From NCBI GenBank assembly GCA_016235745.1, contig JACRJA010000071.1, positions 21,913 through 85,912 of the forward strand: a stretch of 64,000 bases of DNA. The letters are read 5' to 3'. The stretch comes from Rhodocyclales bacterium (GTDB lineage Bacteria; Pseudomonadota; Gammaproteobacteria; Burkholderiales; Rhodocyclaceae). A program made the position numbers and the translations under genes. The notes under the pieces are model-generated. The model saw only the letters and a program-made list of their open reading frames with translations, was not told where the DNA came from and made no database searches. Below are positions 10,033-63,474 of this stretch, piece after piece (position 1 is the stretch's first letter; each line of letters begins with the position of its first letter).

Positions 10033-10117
10033 TGGTGCCCAGAAGAGGACTCGAACCTCCACGCCTTGCGGCACTGGTACCTGAAACCAGCGCGTCTACC
10101 AATTCCGCCATCTGGGC
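10033..10117 (-). tRNA. tRNA-Leu (anticodon CAG), CCA encoded
   Basis: Hand-folded cloverleaf. Acceptor GCCCAGA/TCTGGGC, anticodon stem CTGGT/ACCAG with loop TTCAGGT, long variable arm, T-arm GGAGG-TTCGAGT-CCTCT, 3' ACCA. Confidence 0.9.
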
Positions 10118-16644: not shown

Positions 16645-16717
16645 TGCCGGCAGTCCGATTCGAACGGACGACCTTCCGCTTACAAGGCGGGTGCTCTACC
16701 AGCTGAGCTATGCCGGC
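16645..16717 (-). tRNA. tRNA-Thr (anticodon UGU), CCA not encoded
   Basis: Hand-folded cloverleaf. Acceptor GCCGGCA/TGCCGGC, D-arm GCTC-AGCTGGTA-GAGC, anticodon loop CTTGTAA, T-arm GTCCG-TTCGAAT-CGGAC, discriminator A. Confidence 0.9.
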
Positions 16718-56169: not shown

Positions 56170-57411
56170 ATGGAGCGCAATGAAAGCGGGGCGCCGCCCT
56201 TTTTGTTCGGTCGGCGGATCGTGCTGGGCGTGACGGGGGGCGTGGCAGCCTACAAGGCGGCCGAACTCGTGCGCCGGCTCGTCAAGGCCGGGGCGCAGGT
56301 CGACGTGGTGCTCACGCCGGGCGGGGCGCATTTCGTCACGCCCACCACGTTTCAGGCGCTCTCGGGGCGGCCGGTGTGGTGCGACCCCTGGGACGAGCGG
56401 CGCGCCAACGCCATGGCGCACATCGATCTCACGCGCGGGGCGGATCTTCTGCTGGTGGCGCCCTGCACGGCCGATGCCATGGCGCGCTTCGCCCAGGGGC
56501 AGGCCGACGATCTGCTGACCACGCTCGCGCTGGCGCGCGCCTGTCCGATGGCCGTGGCCCCGGCGATGAACCGCCAGATGTGGCTGCATCCGGCCACGCA
56601 GCGCAACCGCGAACGGCTCGTCGCCGACGGGGTGCTCGTCTGGGGGCCGGCCGAGGGCGAGCAGGCCTGTGGCGAGACCGGGCCGGGGCGCATGATCGAG
56701 CCCGAGGAGATCGAGGCGCGGCTGGAAGCCTTCTTCGCGCCGAAGTGGTTCGCGGGCCATGCGGTGCTGGTCACGGCCGGGCCGACTTACGAGCCGCTCG
56801 ACCCGGTGCGCGTGCTCACCAATCTCAGTTCCGGCAAGATGGGCTATGCGCTGGCGCAGGCGTTCGCGCAGGCCGGCGCTGCGGTGACGCTCGTCTCCGG
56901 CCCCGTGAGCCTGCCCACGCCCTTGGGGGTGACGCGGGTGGACGTGACCTCCGCCGAGCAGATGCGCACGGCGGTGCTGGAGCGCGTCGCGGGGCACCGC
57001 ATCTTCGCCTCGGTGGCGGCGGTGGCCGACTACCGCCCGGCGCGGTCCTTGCCGCAGAAGATGAAGAAAGGGGCTGAGCGCCTCACGCTGGAGCTGGTGC
57101 GCAATCCCGACATCCTCGCCGAGGTGGCGGCGCTGCCCGAACCACCCTGGTGCATCGGGTTTGCCGCCGAGAGCGAGAATCTGGACGAATACGCCGAGCG
57201 CAAACGCCGGGAGAAGAGGCTGCAGCTGGTGGTGGGCAATCTGGTGCAGGAGGCGATGGGGCGCGACGAGAACACGGTCGTGCTCTACGACGAGAACGGC
57301 CGCATTCCTTTGCCGACCGCCGACAAGGCCCAGGTCGCCTGGGGCATCGTGCGGCACGTGGCGCAGCGCCTTGGGTTGATCGACACGGCGGTGGAACGGG
57401 GGGAGCTATGA
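56170..57411 (+). CDS. coaBC: bifunctional phosphopantothenoylcysteine decarboxylase / phosphopantothenate--cysteine ligase
   Basis: 413-aa ORF with an N-terminal flavoprotein domain ([14 protein letters not shown]) and a C-terminal DFP domain. It is followed by dut, the conserved coaBC-dut pair. Confidence 0.9.
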
Positions 57412-57875
57412 CGTACGGCAAGGACGAGGTGACGGTGCAGGTGCGCTTTCTCGATAAGCGCATCAAGGCCCACCCGCCGCAGTACGCCACGCCGGGCGCC
57501 GCGGGGATGGACCTGCGCGCGGCGATCGCCGCCGCCTTCGAGCTCGAACCTGGCGCGACGGCGCTCGTGCCCACCGGCATCGCGCTGCATCTGGCCGACC
57601 CGGGCCTTGCGGCCCTGATCCTGCCGCGCTCGGGACTGGGGCACAAGCATGGCATCGTGCTGGGCAACCTGGTCGGGCTGATCGACTCGGACTACCAGGG
57701 CGAGATCCTCGTGTCGCTGTGGAACCGCGGCGAGGAGGCATTCGTGATCGAGCCGCTCGCGCGCATCGCCCAGCTGGTGATCGTGCCGGTGGTCCATGCT
57801 CGCCTCGTCGCGGTGGAATCGTTCGACCCGAGCGAGCGGGGCGCGGGCGGATTCGGCAGCACGGGGCACGCGTGA
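57408..57875 (+). CDS. dut: dUTP diphosphatase
   Basis: 155-aa product with dUTPase motifs ([38 protein letters not shown]). The ATG overlaps the coaBC stop. Confidence 0.9.
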
Positions 57876-57880
57876 GCGCG

Positions 57881-58315
57881 ATGCCGGCGCGGTTCGCCAT
57901 CCCGACTGCGGTGCAGGTGCGCTTGTTCGACGGGCAGGGGCGGGTGCTCTTCCTGCGCCGCGCCGGTACGGGCTTTTTCGACGGGTTCTGGAGTCTGCCG
58001 GGCGGGCACGTGGAAAACGGTGAGAGCCTGCGCCAGGCCGCCGTGCGCGAGCTCGCCGAGGAGCTGGGCATCGTGGTGGCGCAGGAGGCGCTCGCGGCGG
58101 TGGCGGTGGTGCATCGCGCCTCCGATACCAACCGCATCGAGTTCCTCTTCGATGCGCATCGCTGGCAGGGAGAGGCGCGCATCGCCGAGCCGCACCGCTG
58201 CGACGCCTTGCGTTGGGAGGATCCGGCGCGCCCGCCCGAGCCCTTCGCCCCCTACCTCGCGGCGGTGTGGCCGCAGCTGGGGCGGCAATGGCTGCTCGAG
58301 GTGGGATGGGACTAA
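57881..58315 (+). CDS. NUDIX hydrolase
   Basis: Nudix box GGHVENGESLRQAAVRELAEELG. The start is either ATG 57881 or GTG 57872, which overlaps the dut stop. Confidence 0.75.
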   Translation: MPARFAIPTAVQVRLFDGQGRVLFLRRAGTGFFDGFWSLPGGHVENGESLRQAAVRELAEELGIVVAQEALAAVAVVHRASDTNRIEFLFDAHRWQGEARIAEPHRCDALRWEDPARPPEPFAPYLAAVWPQLGRQWLLEVGWD

Positions 58316-58485
58316 CCCCCAGCCGTCCCGAGGGGGCTGGTGTGCCGTGAATCCCCGTGCTTCTTTTGCCGGAGGCAGCAACGGGCGGCATTCGATGAGG
58401 CCGCGGCTTGTGGTCATGCTGGCGCCGCGCCGCGTTAGCCCGTAAAATGGCGCCTTTGCGCCGCCATCGAGCATCCGGACGGACC

Positions 58486-59409
58486 ATGAGCGAAGAAAAA
58501 CCCACGTTTCAGGACCTTATCCTGCGCCTGCAGCGCTACTGGGCCGAGCTGGGCTGCGTGCTGCTGCAGCCCTACGACCTGGAGGTGGGCGCGGGAACCT
58601 CGCATACCGCCACCTTTCTGCGCGCCATCGGCCCCGAGCCGTGGAACGCTGCCTACGTGCAGCCCTCGCGCCGCCCCAAGGATGGGCGCTACGGCGAGAA
58701 CCCCAACCGGCTGCAGCACTACTACCAGTTCCAGGTGGTGCTGAAACCCTCGCCGCTCGACATCCAGGAGCGCTACCTCGCCAGCCTCGTGGCGCTGGGG
58801 ATCGACCCGCGCGAGCACGACGTGCGCTTCGTCGAGGACGACTGGGAAAACCCCACGCTGGGCGCCTGGGGCCTGGGCTGGGAGGTGTGGCTCGATGGTA
58901 TGGAGGTGACGCAATTCACCTATTTCCAGCAGGTGGGGGGGCTGGACTGCCGCCCCGTGCTCGGCGAGATCACCTATGGGCTCGAGCGCCTGGCGATGTA
59001 CCTGCAGGGCGTGGAGAACGTCTATGACCTCATTTGGACGCGCACGGGCGAGGGTCAGGTGGTCACCTACGGCGACGTCTTCCATCAGAACGAGGTGGAG
59101 CAGTCGAAATACAACTTCGAGTATGCCAACGTGCCCCTGCTCTTCGAGCTCTTCGGCCACTTCGAGGCCGAGGCCAAGCGCCTGATCGAGGCGGCGCTGG
59201 TGCTGCCCGCCTACGAGATGGTGCTCAAGGCCGCGCACACCTTCAATCTGCTCGATGCACGCGGGGCGATCTCGGTGACCGAACGCGCCGCCTATATCGG
59301 GCGCATCCGGGCGCTCGCCCGCGCGGTGGCCCAGGCCTATTTCGCCAGCCGCGAGGCGCTGGGCTTTCCCATGCTCGCTGCGACCGCCAAGAAAGGAGCT
59401 AGACTCTAG
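58486..59409 (+). CDS. glyQ: glycine--tRNA ligase alpha subunit
   Basis: 307-aa product [31 protein letters not shown]…[12 protein letters not shown]…, highly conserved GlyQ sequence. Confidence 0.9.
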
Positions 59410-60802
59410 TATTGCAAATAGTGCGCAATAGTAGATTAAAGAATACAAATAGCCATGCACCTAACCCACAAGATCGCCCTTTGTCCGACGCCAGCGCAAG
59501 CCGACTATTTCAAGCGCGCTTGCGGCACGGCCCGCCGTGTCTGGAACTGGGCGCTCGCTGAGTGGAACAAGCAGTACGCGGCAAGCGGCAAACCCAACGC
59601 CATGGCGCTGAAAAAGCAGTTCAACGCCCTCAAGTACAGCGATCCGCAGTGGCTCGACAAGAACGGGCACCCTTGGCTACGCGACATCCATCGTGATGCC
59701 CATGCCCGGCCGTTCGATCATCTCGCCAAGGCATGGAGCCGGTTCTTCGCCGACCTCAAGGCCGGGAAACCCGCGCATGCGCCACAGTTCAAGAAAAAAG
59801 GCCGCTGCCGCGACAGCTTCTACGTCGCCAACGACAAGCTCACGGTCGCAGACAAGACGATCCGCCTTCCCAAGATCGGTTGGGTGCGGATGCTCGAAGC
59901 CTTGCGCTTCGAAGGCAAGATCCTTGGTGCTACCGTTTCGCGCTCGGCGGATCGCTGGTTCGTCGCGATCCAGGTCGAGGTGCCGGACCGCCAGTTTTAT
60001 CTCCCGCGCGCCGCAAATGGCACGGTTGGAGTCGATCTAGGCGTCAAAACTGCGGTCAAGCTCTCGACCGGCGAGGCCATCGACGCGCCCAAGCCGCTCA
60101 AGGCCGCGCTGCGACGGCTCAAAATCCGCAGCCGCCGCCTCAGCCGTAAAGTGAAAGCGGCCAAAGTCGCGGCAGGGTTTGCGCCGAACGCCCGGCTGCC
60201 AAAAGGCACCAAACTCCCGGTATCCAACAACCGTCAGAAGTCCGCTCAGACCTTGGCAAGGCTGCACGCCCGCATTGCCAATATCCGAGCGGACTTCACT
60301 CACAAGCTCACCACTCGGCTCTGCCGTGAAAACCAAGCGGTCGGGATCGAGGACTTGCACGTCAAGGGAATGCTGGCGAACGACAAGCTCGCCCGCGCCC
60401 TCAGCGACGTGGGCTTTGGAAGGTTCCGCGCGCAGATGGAGTATAAGGCCAAGCGCTACGGCACCCGGCTGATCCTCGCCGATCGCTGGTATCCCAGCAG
60501 CCGCTTGTGTTCCGTCTGCAATTGGAAGAACGAGGCGCTGACCTTGAGCGACCGGGAATGGACGTGTCCGGAATGCGGCGCGCACCATGACCGCGACTAC
60601 AACGCGGCGCTCAACCTGCAACGGCTGGCAACCGCAACTGCCCTACCCGAGGCGAGTCCGGCCGGTAACGGCGGCGCTGCGGCAGAGAGGGTCTCTGCCG
60701 TAGCCGGGAAAGTTACGCCTGTCAGAGACGACAGTGGTCCTCAAGACACGTCGGGGCAGGAAGGGAACCGTGCGCACTTTCGCGCACGTTCTTGAGAGCA
60801 GC
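59398..60802 (+). mobile_element. IS200/IS605-family (IS1341-type, tnpA-less) element carrying only tnpB, inserted between glyQ and glyS; ends approximate
   Basis: glyQ and glyS are separated by a 1.4-kb insert. It consists of a 45-bp AT-rich leader, a 446-codon TnpB ORF and a 14-bp tail. No transposase (Y1 or serine) gene is present. The boundaries are inferred from the composition change and from the reading frames of the flanking genes. Confidence 0.6.
59455..60795 (+). CDS. tnpB: TnpB (InsQ) RNA-guided DNA endonuclease, RuvC triad and zinc ribbon intact
   Basis: 446-aa ORF with the typical N-terminus (HKIALCPTPAQADYFKRACGTARRVWNWAL). RuvC motifs are VGVDLGV (D194), GIEDLHVKGM (E299) and HHDRDYNAALNL (D381). 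Zn ribbon is CSVC…CPEC (C352/355/371/374). Confidence 0.85.
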   Translation: MHLTHKIALCPTPAQADYFKRACGTARRVWNWALAEWNKQYAASGKPNAMALKKQFNALKYSDPQWLDKNGHPWLRDIHRDAHARPFDHLAKAWSRFFADLKAGKPAHAPQFKKKGRCRDSFYVANDKLTVADKTIRLPKIGWVRMLEALRFEGKILGATVSRSADRWFVAIQVEVPDRQFYLPRAANGTVGVDLGVKTAVKLSTGEAIDAPKPLKAALRRLKIRSRRLSRKVKAAKVAAGFAPNARLPKGTKLPVSNNRQKSAQTLARLHARIANIRADFTHKLTTRLCRENQAVGIEDLHVKGMLANDKLARALSDVGFGRFRAQMEYKAKRYGTRLILADRWYPSSRLCSVCNWKNEALTLSDREWTCPECGAHHDRDYNAALNLQRLATATALPEASPAGNGGAAAERVSAVAGKVTPVRDDSGPQDTSGQEGNRAHFRARS

Positions 60803-60809
60803 CTGAGTC

Positions 60810-62924
60810 ATGAGCGAACGGGAAACCCTGCTGGTCGAACTCGTCACCGAGGAACTGCCGCCCAAGGCGCTGCCGCGGCTGGGCGAATCTTTTGGGCGCG
60901 GCGTGCTCGAGCGCTTGCAGGCGCGGCGCCTGGCCGAGGCCGATGCTGCCTGGCGCTGGTTCGCCAGCCCCCGGCGGCTGGCGGTGCAGGTGCGCGACGT
61001 GCGCGAGCGTGCCGCAGACGAACCCCGGATCGAGCGCCTCATGCCCGTAGCGGTGGCGTTCGACGCTGCCGGCAAGCCCACGGCCGCGCTGGAAAAGCGC
61101 CTCGCCGCCAAGGGGCTTACGCCGCAGAGCGCCAAGCTCGAGCGCCGGCTCGACGGCAAGCAGGAGATGCTCTACCTGCATACGGTGGAGGCCGGCGCGC
61201 GGCTCGACGAGGTGCTCGCCGCGATCGTGGCCGAGGCGATCCGCGCCCTGCCCATCCCCAAGCTCATGCGCTGGGGTTCGGGCGAGGCGCAGTTCGTGCG
61301 TCCGGTGCATCGCCTGGTGCTGCTGCACGGCGCGCGCGTGGTGCCGGGGCGCGTGCTCGACCTGGACTCGGGCCGCGAGACGCTGGGGCATCGCTTCATG
61401 AGCCGCGGCGCGATCGAGCTCGCGCAGGCCGAGGCCTATGAGCCGACGCTGCGCGCCGAGGGCAAGGTCATCGCCGACTTCGCCGAGCGGCGCGCCGAGA
61501 TCGAGCGTCAGCTGCAGGAAAAGGCCCAAGCCGAAGGGGGCGTTCTCGGCGAGCATGCGGCGCTGCTCGACGAAGTGACCGCCCTCGTCGAGCATCCCAC
61601 CGTCTATGTCGGGCGCTTCGAGGAGGAATTCCTCGCCGTGCCGCCCGAGTGCCTCATCCTGACGATGCAGGCGAACCAGAAGTATTTCCCGTTGTTCGAT
61701 GCGCAGGGGCGACTGACGAACCGCTTCCTCATCGTCTCGAACATGCACCTGTCCGAGCCCAAGCGCCGCAACATCATCGAGGGCAACGAGCGGGTGGTGC
61801 GCCCGCGCCTGGCCGATGCGCGCTTCTTCTACGAGCAGGACCGCAAGGAACGGCTGGAAGCTCGGCTGCCGCGGCTGGAAGCCATTGTCTATCACAACCG
61901 TATTGGCACTTTGGGCGCGCGGGTCGCGCGGCTCGAAGCGCTCTGCGCCTGGCTCGCCGAGCGGCTGGCTGCCGACGTGGCGCTGGCGCAGCGCGCGGCC
62001 CGGCTCGCCAAGTGCGACCTCGTCACCCAGATGGTGGGCGAATTCCCCGAGTTGCAGGGCGTGATGGGGCGCTACTATGCGCTCGCCGACGGCGAGCCGG
62101 AAGCCGTAGCCGAGGCGATCGAGGACCACTACAAGCCGCGCTTCGCCGGCGATGCGCTGCCGCGCCGGCTCACGGGGAAAATCGTGGCGCTCGCCGAGCG
62201 GCTCGATGCGCTTGCCGGGCTCTTTGCCATCGGCGAGATCCCCACCGGCGAGAAAGACCCCTATGGTCTGCGCCGCGCCGCGCTGGGGGTGCTGCGCATC
62301 GTCCTCGAAACGCCGTTGCCGCTCGAGCTCGACGCGGCGATCGAGCGCGCGCTCGCCGAGCAGCCTCCGGCGGTGCGGGCCCAAGCCCCGGCCGACACCG
62401 CCGACAAACTGCGCCGTTTCTTCGACGAGCGCCTGCGCCATTGGCTGCGCGAAGCAGGGCATGCGCTCGACGCGATCGACGCGGTGCTCGCGCTGCGCCC
62501 GAGCCGCATCGACACGGTGCCGGCGCGGCTCGAGGCGGTGGCCGCCTTCCTCGAGGCGCCGGAAGCGCCCACACTCGCCGCGGCCAACAAACGCATCGCC
62601 AACCTGCTCAAGAAAGCGGGCGAGGAAGGCGCGGCGCACGTCGACGTGGCGCTTTTCGCCGAGCCCGAGGAGAAGTCGCTCTTCGAGAAGATGCACGCCG
62701 TGGCCCCCTACGTCGCTTCGCACCTGGAAAACGAGGCCTACGCCCAGGCGCTCCGCACGCTGGTGGCCCTGGCCGCGCCGGTGGACGCCTTCTTCGATCG
62801 CGTGATGGTGCTGTGCGACGAGCCGCTCTTGCGCGCCAACCGCCTGGCGTTGCTGCGCGAGCTGTGGCGGCTCATGAATCAGGTGGCCGACCTGTCGGTG
62901 CTCGCGCGCGAGGCCGGCGGCTAA
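60810..62924 (+). CDS. glyS: glycine--tRNA ligase beta subunit
   Basis: 704-aa ORF beginning [24 protein letters not shown]…, the characteristic GlyS N-terminus. Confidence 0.9.
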
Positions 62925-62934
62925 GGGGGCGGGG

Positions 62935-63474
62935 ATGAAGCTCATCGTGCTGGATCGCGACGGGGTGATCAACGAGCATTCGGAGCAGTTCGTCAAGAGC
63001 CCGGAGGAATGGATCCCCCTTCCCGGTTCGCTCGAGGCGATCGCTCTGCTCACCCACTGGGGCTGGCGCGTGGTGATCGCCACCAACCAGTCGGCGATCG
63101 GTCGCGGCCTCATCGGCATGGATACCTTGAACGCGATCCACGAGACCATGCTGCGGCGCCTGGCCGAGGTCGGCGGGCGCATCCACGCCATCTTCTTCTG
63201 TCCGCACGCCGAGGCGGAAAACTGCGCCTGCCGCAAGCCCAAGCCGGGAATGCTGCTCGAAATCGGCCAGCGCTTCGGCGTCGATCTGAGCAAAGTGCCG
63301 GCGGTGGGCGACGGCATCCGCGACATCCAGGCGGCGGTGGCCGCCGGCTGCCGCCCGTGGCTGGTGCTCAGCGGCAAGGGGCGACAGACGTTGGCAAGCG
63401 GCCTGCTGCCGGAGAACGTGACCATCGCCGAGGATCTGGCCGAAGTCGCCCGCCGGCTCACGGAGGCGCCATGA
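62935..63474 (+). CDS. gmhB: D-glycero-beta-D-manno-heptose 1,7-bisphosphate 7-phosphatase
   Basis: 179-aa HAD phosphatase with DRDGVIN, the Zn-binding CPH…C.CRKPKPGM and VGDGIRD. The glyS-gmhB-plsC order is common. Confidence 0.85.
   Translation: MKLIVLDRDGVINEHSEQFVKSPEEWIPLPGSLEAIALLTHWGWRVVIATNQSAIGRGLIGMDTLNAIHETMLRRLAEVGGRIHAIFFCPHAEAENCACRKPKPGMLLEIGQRFGVDLSKVPAVGDGIRDIQAAVAAGCRPWLVLSGKGRQTLASGLLPENVTIAEDLAEVARRLTEAP

Follow-up and report, generated by a model that had tools for sequence, protein, structure and literature searches.

What separates glyQ from glyS, the genes for the two subunits of glycine--tRNA ligase, in a 64,000-nucleotide stretch (hereafter the window) of contig JACRJA010000071.1, which belongs to a metagenome-assembled genome (MAG) labelled 'Rhodocyclales bacterium' (assembly GCA_016235745.1)? 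A sequence-only reading had proposed that a tnpB-carrying element sits precisely at the junction of the two genes, and that a seamless empty site can be reconstructed by joining its flanks. We find that an element of 1,403 bp (59399-60801, + strand), composed of a left end, tnpB and a guide-RNA scaffold with the right end, and devoid of tnpA, has been inserted next to an AGGAG motif (59394-59398, + strand) that lies within the last codons of glyQ and that the element uses as its target and that formerly served glyS as Shine-Dalgarno sequence. The best explanation, which we hold with high confidence, is a non-autonomous, tnpA-deleted derivative of the IS607 family, lodged in the glyQ-glyS junction of a Tepidiphilus-like betaproteobacterium.

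An inserted element at the glyQ-glyS junction

The genes glyQ (58486-59409; alpha subunit, 307 aa), tnpB (59455-60795; 446 aa) and glyS (60810-62924; beta subunit, 704 aa, intact) all have the same orientation, on the + strand. Their identities, as given by the sequence-only reading, are borne out by Pfam and NCBIfam profiles: PF02091 (E 9.7e-150) and TIGR00388 for GlyQ, HTH_OrfB_IS605, OrfB_IS605, the zinc-ribbon TNB domain and NF040570 guided_TnpB for TnpB, and PF02092 (E 1.9e-195), DALR_1 and TIGR00211 for GlyS. When positions 59399-60801 are removed, the window reads AAAGGAGCCTGAGTCATG, which is the exact junction found in four uninterrupted Tepidiphilus-type relatives (L001, L166-L168). 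These four read aaagaaaggagcctgagtcatgag, encode a GlyQ of 305 aa ending in ...AKKGA*, begin glyS 3 nt past the glyQ stop and retain AGGAG 8 nt before the glyS ATG. The native junction that had been predicted from the window, with a GlyQ ending in K-G-A-stop, a GGAG 8 nt before the glyS ATG and a gap of 3 nt, is matched exactly in these close relatives, and the alignment of relatives' junctions that had been suggested as a check returned the same native junction in all of them. The cluster representative of GlyQ (P0121) is also 305 aa long, with the C-terminus ...AAKKGA, and its contig, L001, reads cgcaaagaaaggagcctgagtcatgagtgaacggg. Without the element, the window aligns as one high-scoring segment pair with L001 (92.4% over 4,096 nt) and with L166 (91.4% over 3,911 nt), and the empty sites carry no duplicated bases except the shared AG. 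Parsimony favours an insertion in the window's lineage rather than a loss in the others. Hydrogenophilus thermoluteolus was rejected as an empty-site reference for being too distant, as glyQ and glyS overlap there and AGGAG is missing; among the genomes compared, the AGGAG target at this junction exists only in the Tepidiphilus-like lineage.

The insertion modified both neighbours. The last 11 nt of glyQ (59399-59409: the C of an Ala codon, AGA, CTC and TAG) belong to the element and encode an additional Arg-Leu followed by a new stop. The C-terminus of GlyQ varies among relatives; that of the window is longer by two residues, with 307 aa against 305 aa in every other full-length listed member of its 90% cluster, in line with the earlier proposal that the element supplies the present tail (RL) and stop codon. 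On the other side, glyS retains 8 nt of its native leader, with the right end of the element directly upstream and its Shine-Dalgarno sequence now 1.4 kb away, so that the suggested loss of that sequence to the far side of the insert also stands.

The exact boundaries required a small correction. The sequence-only reading had placed the left junction at 59399|59400 (...GCCAAGAAAGGAGC|TAGACTCTAG) and the right junction at 60802|60803 (...TTCTTGAGAGCAGC|CTGAGTCATGAGC), hence an element spanning 59400-60802. With AG(C) present in both the left flank and the right end, the breakpoint may be drawn up to 2 nt further left or 1 nt further right, and either description gives the same empty site, which had been deduced correctly. 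The element is best written 1 nt further left, a shift masked by the shared C, because the conserved right end (...TTCTTGATAGCAG) stops at ...AGCAG and the next base is variable (A 47, G 28, C 25 and T 18 over 118 distinct sites): G 60801 is the last base of the element and C 60802 is host DNA. All sequences quoted in the sequence-only reading were found where it had placed them. A self-search of the 64-kb window by blastn and tblastn revealed no second copy of the element or of tnpB, and the ends were for this reason defined from other genomes. The element has a GC content of 61.6%, against 66.9% for the window.

Since the contig comes from a MAG, and the exact TnpB of the window is recorded only on this one 86-kb contig of the 'Rhodocyclales bacterium' MAG, an assembly artefact that joined a repeat into a glyQS contig was considered. 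The two junctions coincide exactly with the ends specific to the family (TAM|left end and right end|flank, where TAM is the transposon-adjacent motif described below), and removal of the element restores a perfect, frame-preserving native junction, an outcome that a chimera would not give. We consider such an artefact extremely improbable.

Relatives with a serine recombinase gene

A protein-guided scan of species-representative genomes and metagenomes yielded 160 related loci. In essentially all of them, homology to the window ends at 60801, as seen in 132 copies at 118 distinct sites; the alignment of other copies, which had also been suggested as a check, places the right breakpoint within 1 nt of the earlier one and finds the left ends homologous. 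In most relatives, an open reading frame (ORF) of 190-210 aa upstream of tnpB encodes an IS607 family transposase (NCBIfam), exemplified by the tnpA of L023 (1850-2479), which scores 180.6 bits on NF033518 transpos_IS607 (cut-off 110). Relatives with tnpA share both ends with the window element. Their left ends, GGAG|C[C/T][A/G][G/T]ACTCTAG..TTGnnn..GTGCGC.., are homologous to window positions 59399-59440. Full-length copies, with tnpA, are about 2,030 bp long; those of a series without it range from 1,399 to 1,609 bp, and the window element, at 1,403 bp, is one of them.

The left end of the window element (59399-59454, + strand; 56 bp, 33% GC) was aligned with those of L005, L073, L032, Chloroflexus and L082. 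It is homologous to the relatives' left ends up to the tnpA promoter region, tnpA itself being deleted. The CAAATAG direct repeats reported earlier (59415-59421 and 59446-59452) are present, and the alignment shows that they are part of a set of motifs, all ending in TAG and conserved across the relatives' left ends; in the window these lie at 59400, 59407, 59419, 59429, 59432 and 59450, with a spacing of 7-18 nt. They are in keeping with published descriptions of IS607 ends, which carry short direct repeats (PMC6188088). No inverted-repeat relation exists between the termini, CTAGACTC... and ...GAGAGCAG. GTGCGC occurs in both ends of the element and is partly conserved in relatives.

Besides these motifs, the left end contains an imperfect palindrome, TATTGC-AAATAGTGC-GCAATA (59410-59430), centred on the conserved GTGCGC. 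It lies in what is the tnpA promoter spacer in relatives and may be an operator or a TnpA-binding site.

Sister copies of the tnpA-less form were found at L082-84, with a TnpB 88% identical to that of the window (P0003, used for the sister-site comparison; the closest TnpB, P0002, is 90% identical) and the same short left end at a different site. In L082, the copy is flanked by genes for a tadA-type deaminase and an ElsL-like L,D-carboxypeptidase, with the target AAAAAGGAG and an ATG 5 nt past the right end. The same tnpA-less form at a different site, at 88% TnpB identity, indicates that this form is a lineage that is mobile and began to diverge some time ago.

The target motif is the Shine-Dalgarno core

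GGAG directly precedes the left end in 54 of the 60 distinct sites with a locatable left end, with an A at position -5 in 43%. AGGAG has been reported as the 5' TAM of 18 of 22 IS607 TnpBs, any single substitution abolishing cleavage (PMC11061315). On these flanks, (A)GGAG is the target/TAM of this family, so that the GGAG of glyS, which the earlier reading had placed 8 nt upstream of the glyS ATG in the joined flanks, was no accidental casualty; its use as a TAM by the window element itself is deduced from the flanks. Because the target motif is the Shine-Dalgarno core and the left end always abuts the TAM, insertion at such a site brings with it both the loss of the Shine-Dalgarno sequence and the co-orientation of tnpB with glyS. 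The right end reads AGCAG in all copies and differs from the TAM only at -3. A near-TAM right end with a -3 mismatch is likewise found in the IS607-type IStron CboIStron, in which the target is TGGG and the right end TCGG, and for which experiments have shown that the occupied site owes its protection to discrimination at -3 (bioRxiv 10.1101/2023.11.20.567912). The dinucleotide AG is present at both junctions of the window element (59397-59398 and 60800-60801), as in all related copies.

Insertions between Shine-Dalgarno sequences and start codons recur

To quantify how often related insertions fall in such a context, we counted only ATG codons of ORFs of at least 100 codons at a spacing of 4-11 nt past the right end, and added Pfam validation. 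A first control, which accepted any start codon and ORFs of at least 80 codons, was replaced, as spurious ORFs in GC-rich DNA raised the control to 27%. With the stricter definition, 27 of the 99 distinct related sites with enough flank have such an ATG, against 99 of 1,479 control GGAG sites in the same loci (6.7%; odds ratio 5.2, p = 2e-9). A Pfam match was obtained for 19 of the 20 such ORFs tested, with the domain starting within the first ~30 residues in most. The downstream genes include glyS and those for PdxJ, a His_biosynth protein (hisA/F-type), TatC, EarP, HemX and an aldehyde dehydrogenase, and in at least four cases a complete upstream gene is closed by the left end: glyQ in the window, tadA in L082, a phosphoglucosamine-mutase-type gene in L087 and tsaC/sua5 in L105. 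By this count, the coincidence of Shine-Dalgarno sequence and TAM is recurrent, about a quarter of the related insertions lying between a Shine-Dalgarno sequence and a real start codon.

Does this recurrence carry an adaptive meaning? The tentative proposal, which we consider rather unlikely, is that the AGGAG-targeting IS607 clade is built to live as an extra cistron in Shine-Dalgarno-to-start spacers, including those of essential genes. Four features prompt it: a TAM identical to the Shine-Dalgarno core forces co-orientation and would supply host transcription; the left end has TAG stops in all three incoming frames, so that none of them stays open for more than 11 codons; in all copies 6 nt separate the tnpB stop from the right end, such that the displaced host gene could be translated by termination-reinitiation; and the guide RNA would carry the host gene's own translation-initiation region. 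If this were true, TnpB bound to the read-through transcript could compete with host translation, a translation-level counterpart of the conflict between intron and guide RNA described for IStrons.

The neutral alternative, to which we give a substantial share of belief that still falls short of probable, is that the element lands at any GGAG, that no adaptive meaning attaches to the Shine-Dalgarno context, to co-orientation or to a tnpB stop so close to glyS, and that only harmless insertions survive. The sole target requirement seen is (A)GGAG, 73% of the related sites lie outside Shine-Dalgarno-ATG spacers, and the ~20 recent copies of Chloroflexus sp. MS-G are almost all elsewhere. Purifying selection that removes insertions from within genes would be enough to enrich for intergenic GGAG, and GGAG between genes often serves as a Shine-Dalgarno sequence; the enrichment may reflect survivorship, with intragenic insertions lost, rather than preference. 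Yet it should be costly to place an element between an essential gene's Shine-Dalgarno sequence and its start codon, and such sites are 5-fold over-represented; the left end also carries stops in all three frames, and in every copy the tnpB stop is 6 nt from the right end. The neutral account and our explanation differ in degree only, not in what the element is.

A separate observation concerns the right end. The base 7 nt before it is T in most copies (GATAGCAG) and a purine in the window (GAGAGCAG, 60794-60801). Purine variants stand in a Shine-Dalgarno-to-ATG context at 10 of 16 sites, against 19 of 83 for T/C, a comparison confounded by phylogeny; the purine variant may act as a weak substitute for the Shine-Dalgarno sequence. 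GAGAG as a compensatory Shine-Dalgarno sequence was examined separately and rejected, G variants being in that context in 4 of 8 cases against 25 of 91 for the others (p = 0.23).

TnpB and its predicted guide RNA

The window TnpB scores 308 bits on NF040570 (cut-off 100) and has all three Pfam domains. Alignment to ISDra2 TnpB (8bf8/8ex9) shows that the RuvC residues D194, E299 and D381 and the two CxxC pairs (352, 371) are intact. The tnpB gene closes with TGA (60793-60795), with the right end 6 nt and the glyS ATG 14 nt downstream.

The 3' part of tnpB overlaps a conserved RNA structure. RNAalifold, applied to 44 diverse copies, predicted 58 pairs, of which 26 have compensatory double changes, and the covariation supports a guide-RNA (omegaRNA/reRNA) scaffold of ~175 nt (60627-60801, + strand) that overlaps tnpB codons 391-446. 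Its helices are 60627-30/60639-42, 60646-49/60705-08, 60656-64/60669-75, 60676-88/60692-704, 60718-23/60755-60, 60729-32/60750-53, 60763-67/60789-93 and 60771-75/60782-86. In the 44 copies, 95.2% of the cells are paired, compared with 36-47% when the partners are slid, and 210 cells show double changes, compared with 27-59; none of 500 shuffles reached any of the observed measures. The right-end hairpin noted earlier corresponds, on this folding, to the last stem of the scaffold (60771-75/60782-86). No Rfam family, including RAGATH-18 and the guide-RNA and intron families, matched at E <= 1 in 58000-62000 or at E <= 10 in 60500-60850; a snoRNA, the single Rfam match of a permissive search (E = 4), was put down to chance.

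In IS607 TnpB systems, the guide is known to be the stretch directly 3' of the right end. From this geometry, the guide of the window element is predicted to be the right flank, CCTGAGTCATGAGCGAACGG (60802-60821, + strand; an assumed length of 20 nt), which directly follows the conserved right end and takes in TGA, the former stop of glyQ (60804-60806), as well as the start codon of glyS (60810-60812). A guide that covers the glyS start region, together with a tnpB within the host operon, raises the question of whether TnpB has been domesticated as an RNA-guided regulator of glyS, in the manner of TldR, and is no longer part of a selfish element. Against this, the catalytic RuvC residues are intact, the same type of element occupies more than 100 unrelated sites with a different flank each time, related genomes have no element at glyQ-glyS, and the guide match is adjoined by AGCAG, not by the TAM. 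Neither clade-wide conservation of the insertion nor loss of catalytic residues was seen in the window element and its relatives, and we regard domestication as highly unlikely.

IS607 or IS200/IS605?

An alternative for the identity of the element is an IS200/IS605-type, IS1341-like TnpB-only element, moved as single-stranded DNA by a Y1 transposase via subterminal hairpins and inserted 3' of the TAM. Several observations speak against our explanation, and some of them would suit this alternative. First, the TnpB scores higher on the NCBIfam IS200/IS605 model (IS200_TnpB, 316 bits, cut-off 425) than on the IS607 model (IS607_TnpB, 254 bits), both scores being below cut-off, and the nearest solved natural structure by sequence is that of ISDra2 TnpB. 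Second, no tnpA is present in the 64-kb window, and a trans-acting transposase has to be assumed. Third, the shared dinucleotide is AG, not the GG of the IS607 literature, and the AG crossover point is itself deduced from the flanks. Fourth, AGGAG-type IS607 TnpBs have been reported to use the RAGATH-18 motif, which the scaffold fails to match. To these are added the possible survivorship discussed above and the recently expanded copies of Chloroflexus sp. MS-G, which are mostly outside Shine-Dalgarno-ATG spacers.

The IS200/IS605 alternative can also invoke the right-end hairpin and an 8-mer that links both ends, AGTGCGCA at 59420-59427 and its counterpart TGCGCACT at 60771-60778, both of which are present as the sequence-only reading had reported. 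However, an IS607 serine recombinase gene stands directly upstream of tnpB in every full-length relative examined, and the left ends of these relatives are homologous to that of the window. The left end forms no significant hairpin, its fold being no better than that of shuffled sequences (z = -1.2 and 0.06). As in IS607, a dinucleotide, albeit AG and not GG, is common to the flank and the right end, and the TAM and the right end differ only at -3, while the right-end hairpin is accounted for by the RNA scaffold. The IS200/IS605 alternative is largely refuted, and we judge it very unlikely.

Expression of glyS and a model for the insertion

How is glyS expressed 1.4 kb away from its Shine-Dalgarno sequence? 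A promoter/terminator scan found no promoter-like site in 58300-61000 and no terminator-like site on its + strand; the two terminator-like sites in this interval are both on the minus strand. The same scan detected no sigma-70-like promoter inside the element, which makes read-through from glyQ likelier than an internal promoter. At the position of the tnpA promoter, L005 has TTGCCA-16-TATAAT and the window TTGCAA-16-GATTAA; with a -10 of GATTAA in place of TATAAT, an internal promoter in the left end is not supported. Judging from these sequence features, read-through from glyQ is more likely than an internal promoter to express glyS, and glyQ, tnpB and glyS probably form a single transcript. 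Ribosomes that finish tnpB at its TGA, 14 nt before the glyS ATG, would probably be the ones to start on glyS, with the weak purine run GAGAG (60794-60798) as an additional or alternative aid.

From what was observed here, namely the insertion with its boundaries, family and target motif, the conserved RNA structure and catalytic motifs that are intact, we infer the recombination chemistry, the use of the guide, homing and the route of glyS expression as follows. The element would have inserted at an AGGAG within the last glyQ codons that doubled as the glyS Shine-Dalgarno sequence, most likely through a serine-recombinase crossover, with TnpA provided in trans, between the AG of a circle junction (...AGC-AG-CTAGAC...) and the AG of AGGAG. 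As the left end always abuts the TAM and tnpB points away from it, insertion into a Shine-Dalgarno sequence would set tnpB, co-oriented, between that sequence and the start codon, and the left end would terminate the upstream reading frame after two extra codons. Transcription would then yield one glyQ-tnpB-glyS message, with glyS starting by termination at the tnpB TGA and/or from GAGAG. TnpB, with its scaffold and the flank-derived guide CCTGAGTCATGAGC..., would cut any empty site, where AGGAG adjoins the guide match, and an occupied copy, used as the template for repair, would bring the element back; a site that holds the element would be spared, its right end being AGCAG, not AGGAG.

Host lineage and spread of the family

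The window GlyQ belongs to a 90% cluster whose other members are Tepidiphilus sequences, and the window glyS is 93% identical in nucleotides to that of L001. The gene order coaBC(dfp)-dut-NUDIX-glyQ-[element]-glyS-HAD phosphatase-acyltransferase (window 56170-63474) matches that of the Tepidiphilus contigs L001 and L166; the shared order supports a Tepidiphilus-like origin for the MAG labelled Rhodocyclales. One GlyQ homolog (P0124, on an ENA contig) is identical to the window GlyQ over the first ~90 residues and then diverges, for ~86% overall, which suggests a recombinant gene or a chimeric metagenome contig. Elsewhere in the 64-kb window, two tRNA genes on the minus strand (10036-10117 and 16645-16717) are the sole Rfam matches at the gathering threshold.

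The TnpB/IS607 lineage of the window shows 77-80% protein identity between Chloroflexus and Beta/Gammaproteobacteria (among them Tepidiphilus, Hydrogenophilus, Thermomonas and Giesbergeria). In Chloroflexus sp. MS-G (L007-L028, L066, L077), one genome holds at least 20 copies that are mutually 92-94% identical in nucleotides. By these identities, a recent cross-phylum transfer, largely among thermophile or bioreactor taxa, is implied. One relative (77.6%) lies on a plasmid of Sulfuricystis multivorans, near traD. In Thermomonas hydrothermalis (L036), an extra right-end/guide-RNA fragment of ~200 nt (2507-2706), 86% identical to window 60601-60801, stands just upstream of a full tnpB and represents a nested or tandem insertion, or else a guide-RNA remnant left on its own.

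Comparison with known systems

The locus places a selfish RNA-guided-nuclease element inside an essential aminoacyl-tRNA synthetase operon for which the true empty site is known, and the position of the element there is explained by a host ribosome-binding site that is also a transposon target motif. The IS607 family and this type of TnpB were already known; what the present comparison adds is a reason for the position, in which the TAM would be the Shine-Dalgarno sequence, and evidence that the situation recurs. In the literature searched, we did not find a stated link between the AGGAG TAM of IS607 TnpBs and the Shine-Dalgarno core. The locus also provides a testable model for how such elements gain expression and limit harm to the host. 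Where AGGAG-TAM TnpBs are used in bacteria, their natural targets would be translation-initiation regions.

Compared with the IS607 family (IS607, IS1535, ISC1926; CboIStron; ISXfa1), the window's full-length relatives have the same kind of serine recombinase, with a MerR-like HTH and a resolvase catalytic domain, upstream of tnpB. The window element itself shares with the family the lack of terminal inverted repeats and of target duplication, the seamless empty site, and a tnpB placed downstream with the guide RNA at the right end. The short repeated motifs in its ends are candidate counterparts of the TnpA-binding repeats of the family, and the dinucleotide common to the target and both junctions, AG against the canonical GG, may correspond to the family's core dinucleotide. 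As far as the flanks tell, transposase and TnpB recognise one and the same motif, and a single mismatch sets the right end apart from this TAM, as elsewhere in the family. The window copy differs by its lost tnpA and by the absence of a group I intron, its left end being only 56 bp long.

The RAGATH-18-guided IS607 TnpBs (ISFba1 and others; Ren et al. 2024, PMC11061315) use the same 5-nt AGGAG, here deduced from flanks, and likewise encode the guide RNA at and beyond the 3' end of tnpB. By contrast, the window scaffold has no Rfam RAGATH-18 match even at E <= 10, and its TnpB is 446 aa long against 387 aa for ISFba1. By sequence, this TnpB is nearer to that of ISDra2 (E 4e-57) than to 8iaz, the next-ranked natural solved chain (E 6e-42).

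Other close parallels are the tnpA-less TnpB elements (IS1341-type, solo-tnpB) and TnpB-mediated restorative homing. Like the former, the window element consists only of tnpB and ends, and it belongs to a diverging lineage. IS1341 is classed with IS200/IS605; the window lineage differs in having arisen from IS607-type parents by deletion of tnpA. It differs from IS200/IS605 proper, with their Y1 HUH TnpA and subterminal hairpins at both ends, by the serine recombinase partner found in its relatives and the lack of a significant left-end hairpin.

Finally, IStrons, which combine a group I intron with IS605 or IS607, resemble the window element in being a solution to the cost of insertion into expressed host genes, and in having their TAM within a functional context of the host transcript. 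They differ from it by the intron, for which the window has no Rfam match and the 56-bp left end leaves no counterpart. Any mitigation of the cost to the host would, if it exists at all, act in the window element at the level of translation, through the left-end stops and the tnpB stop near the host start codon, and not through splicing as in the IStrons.

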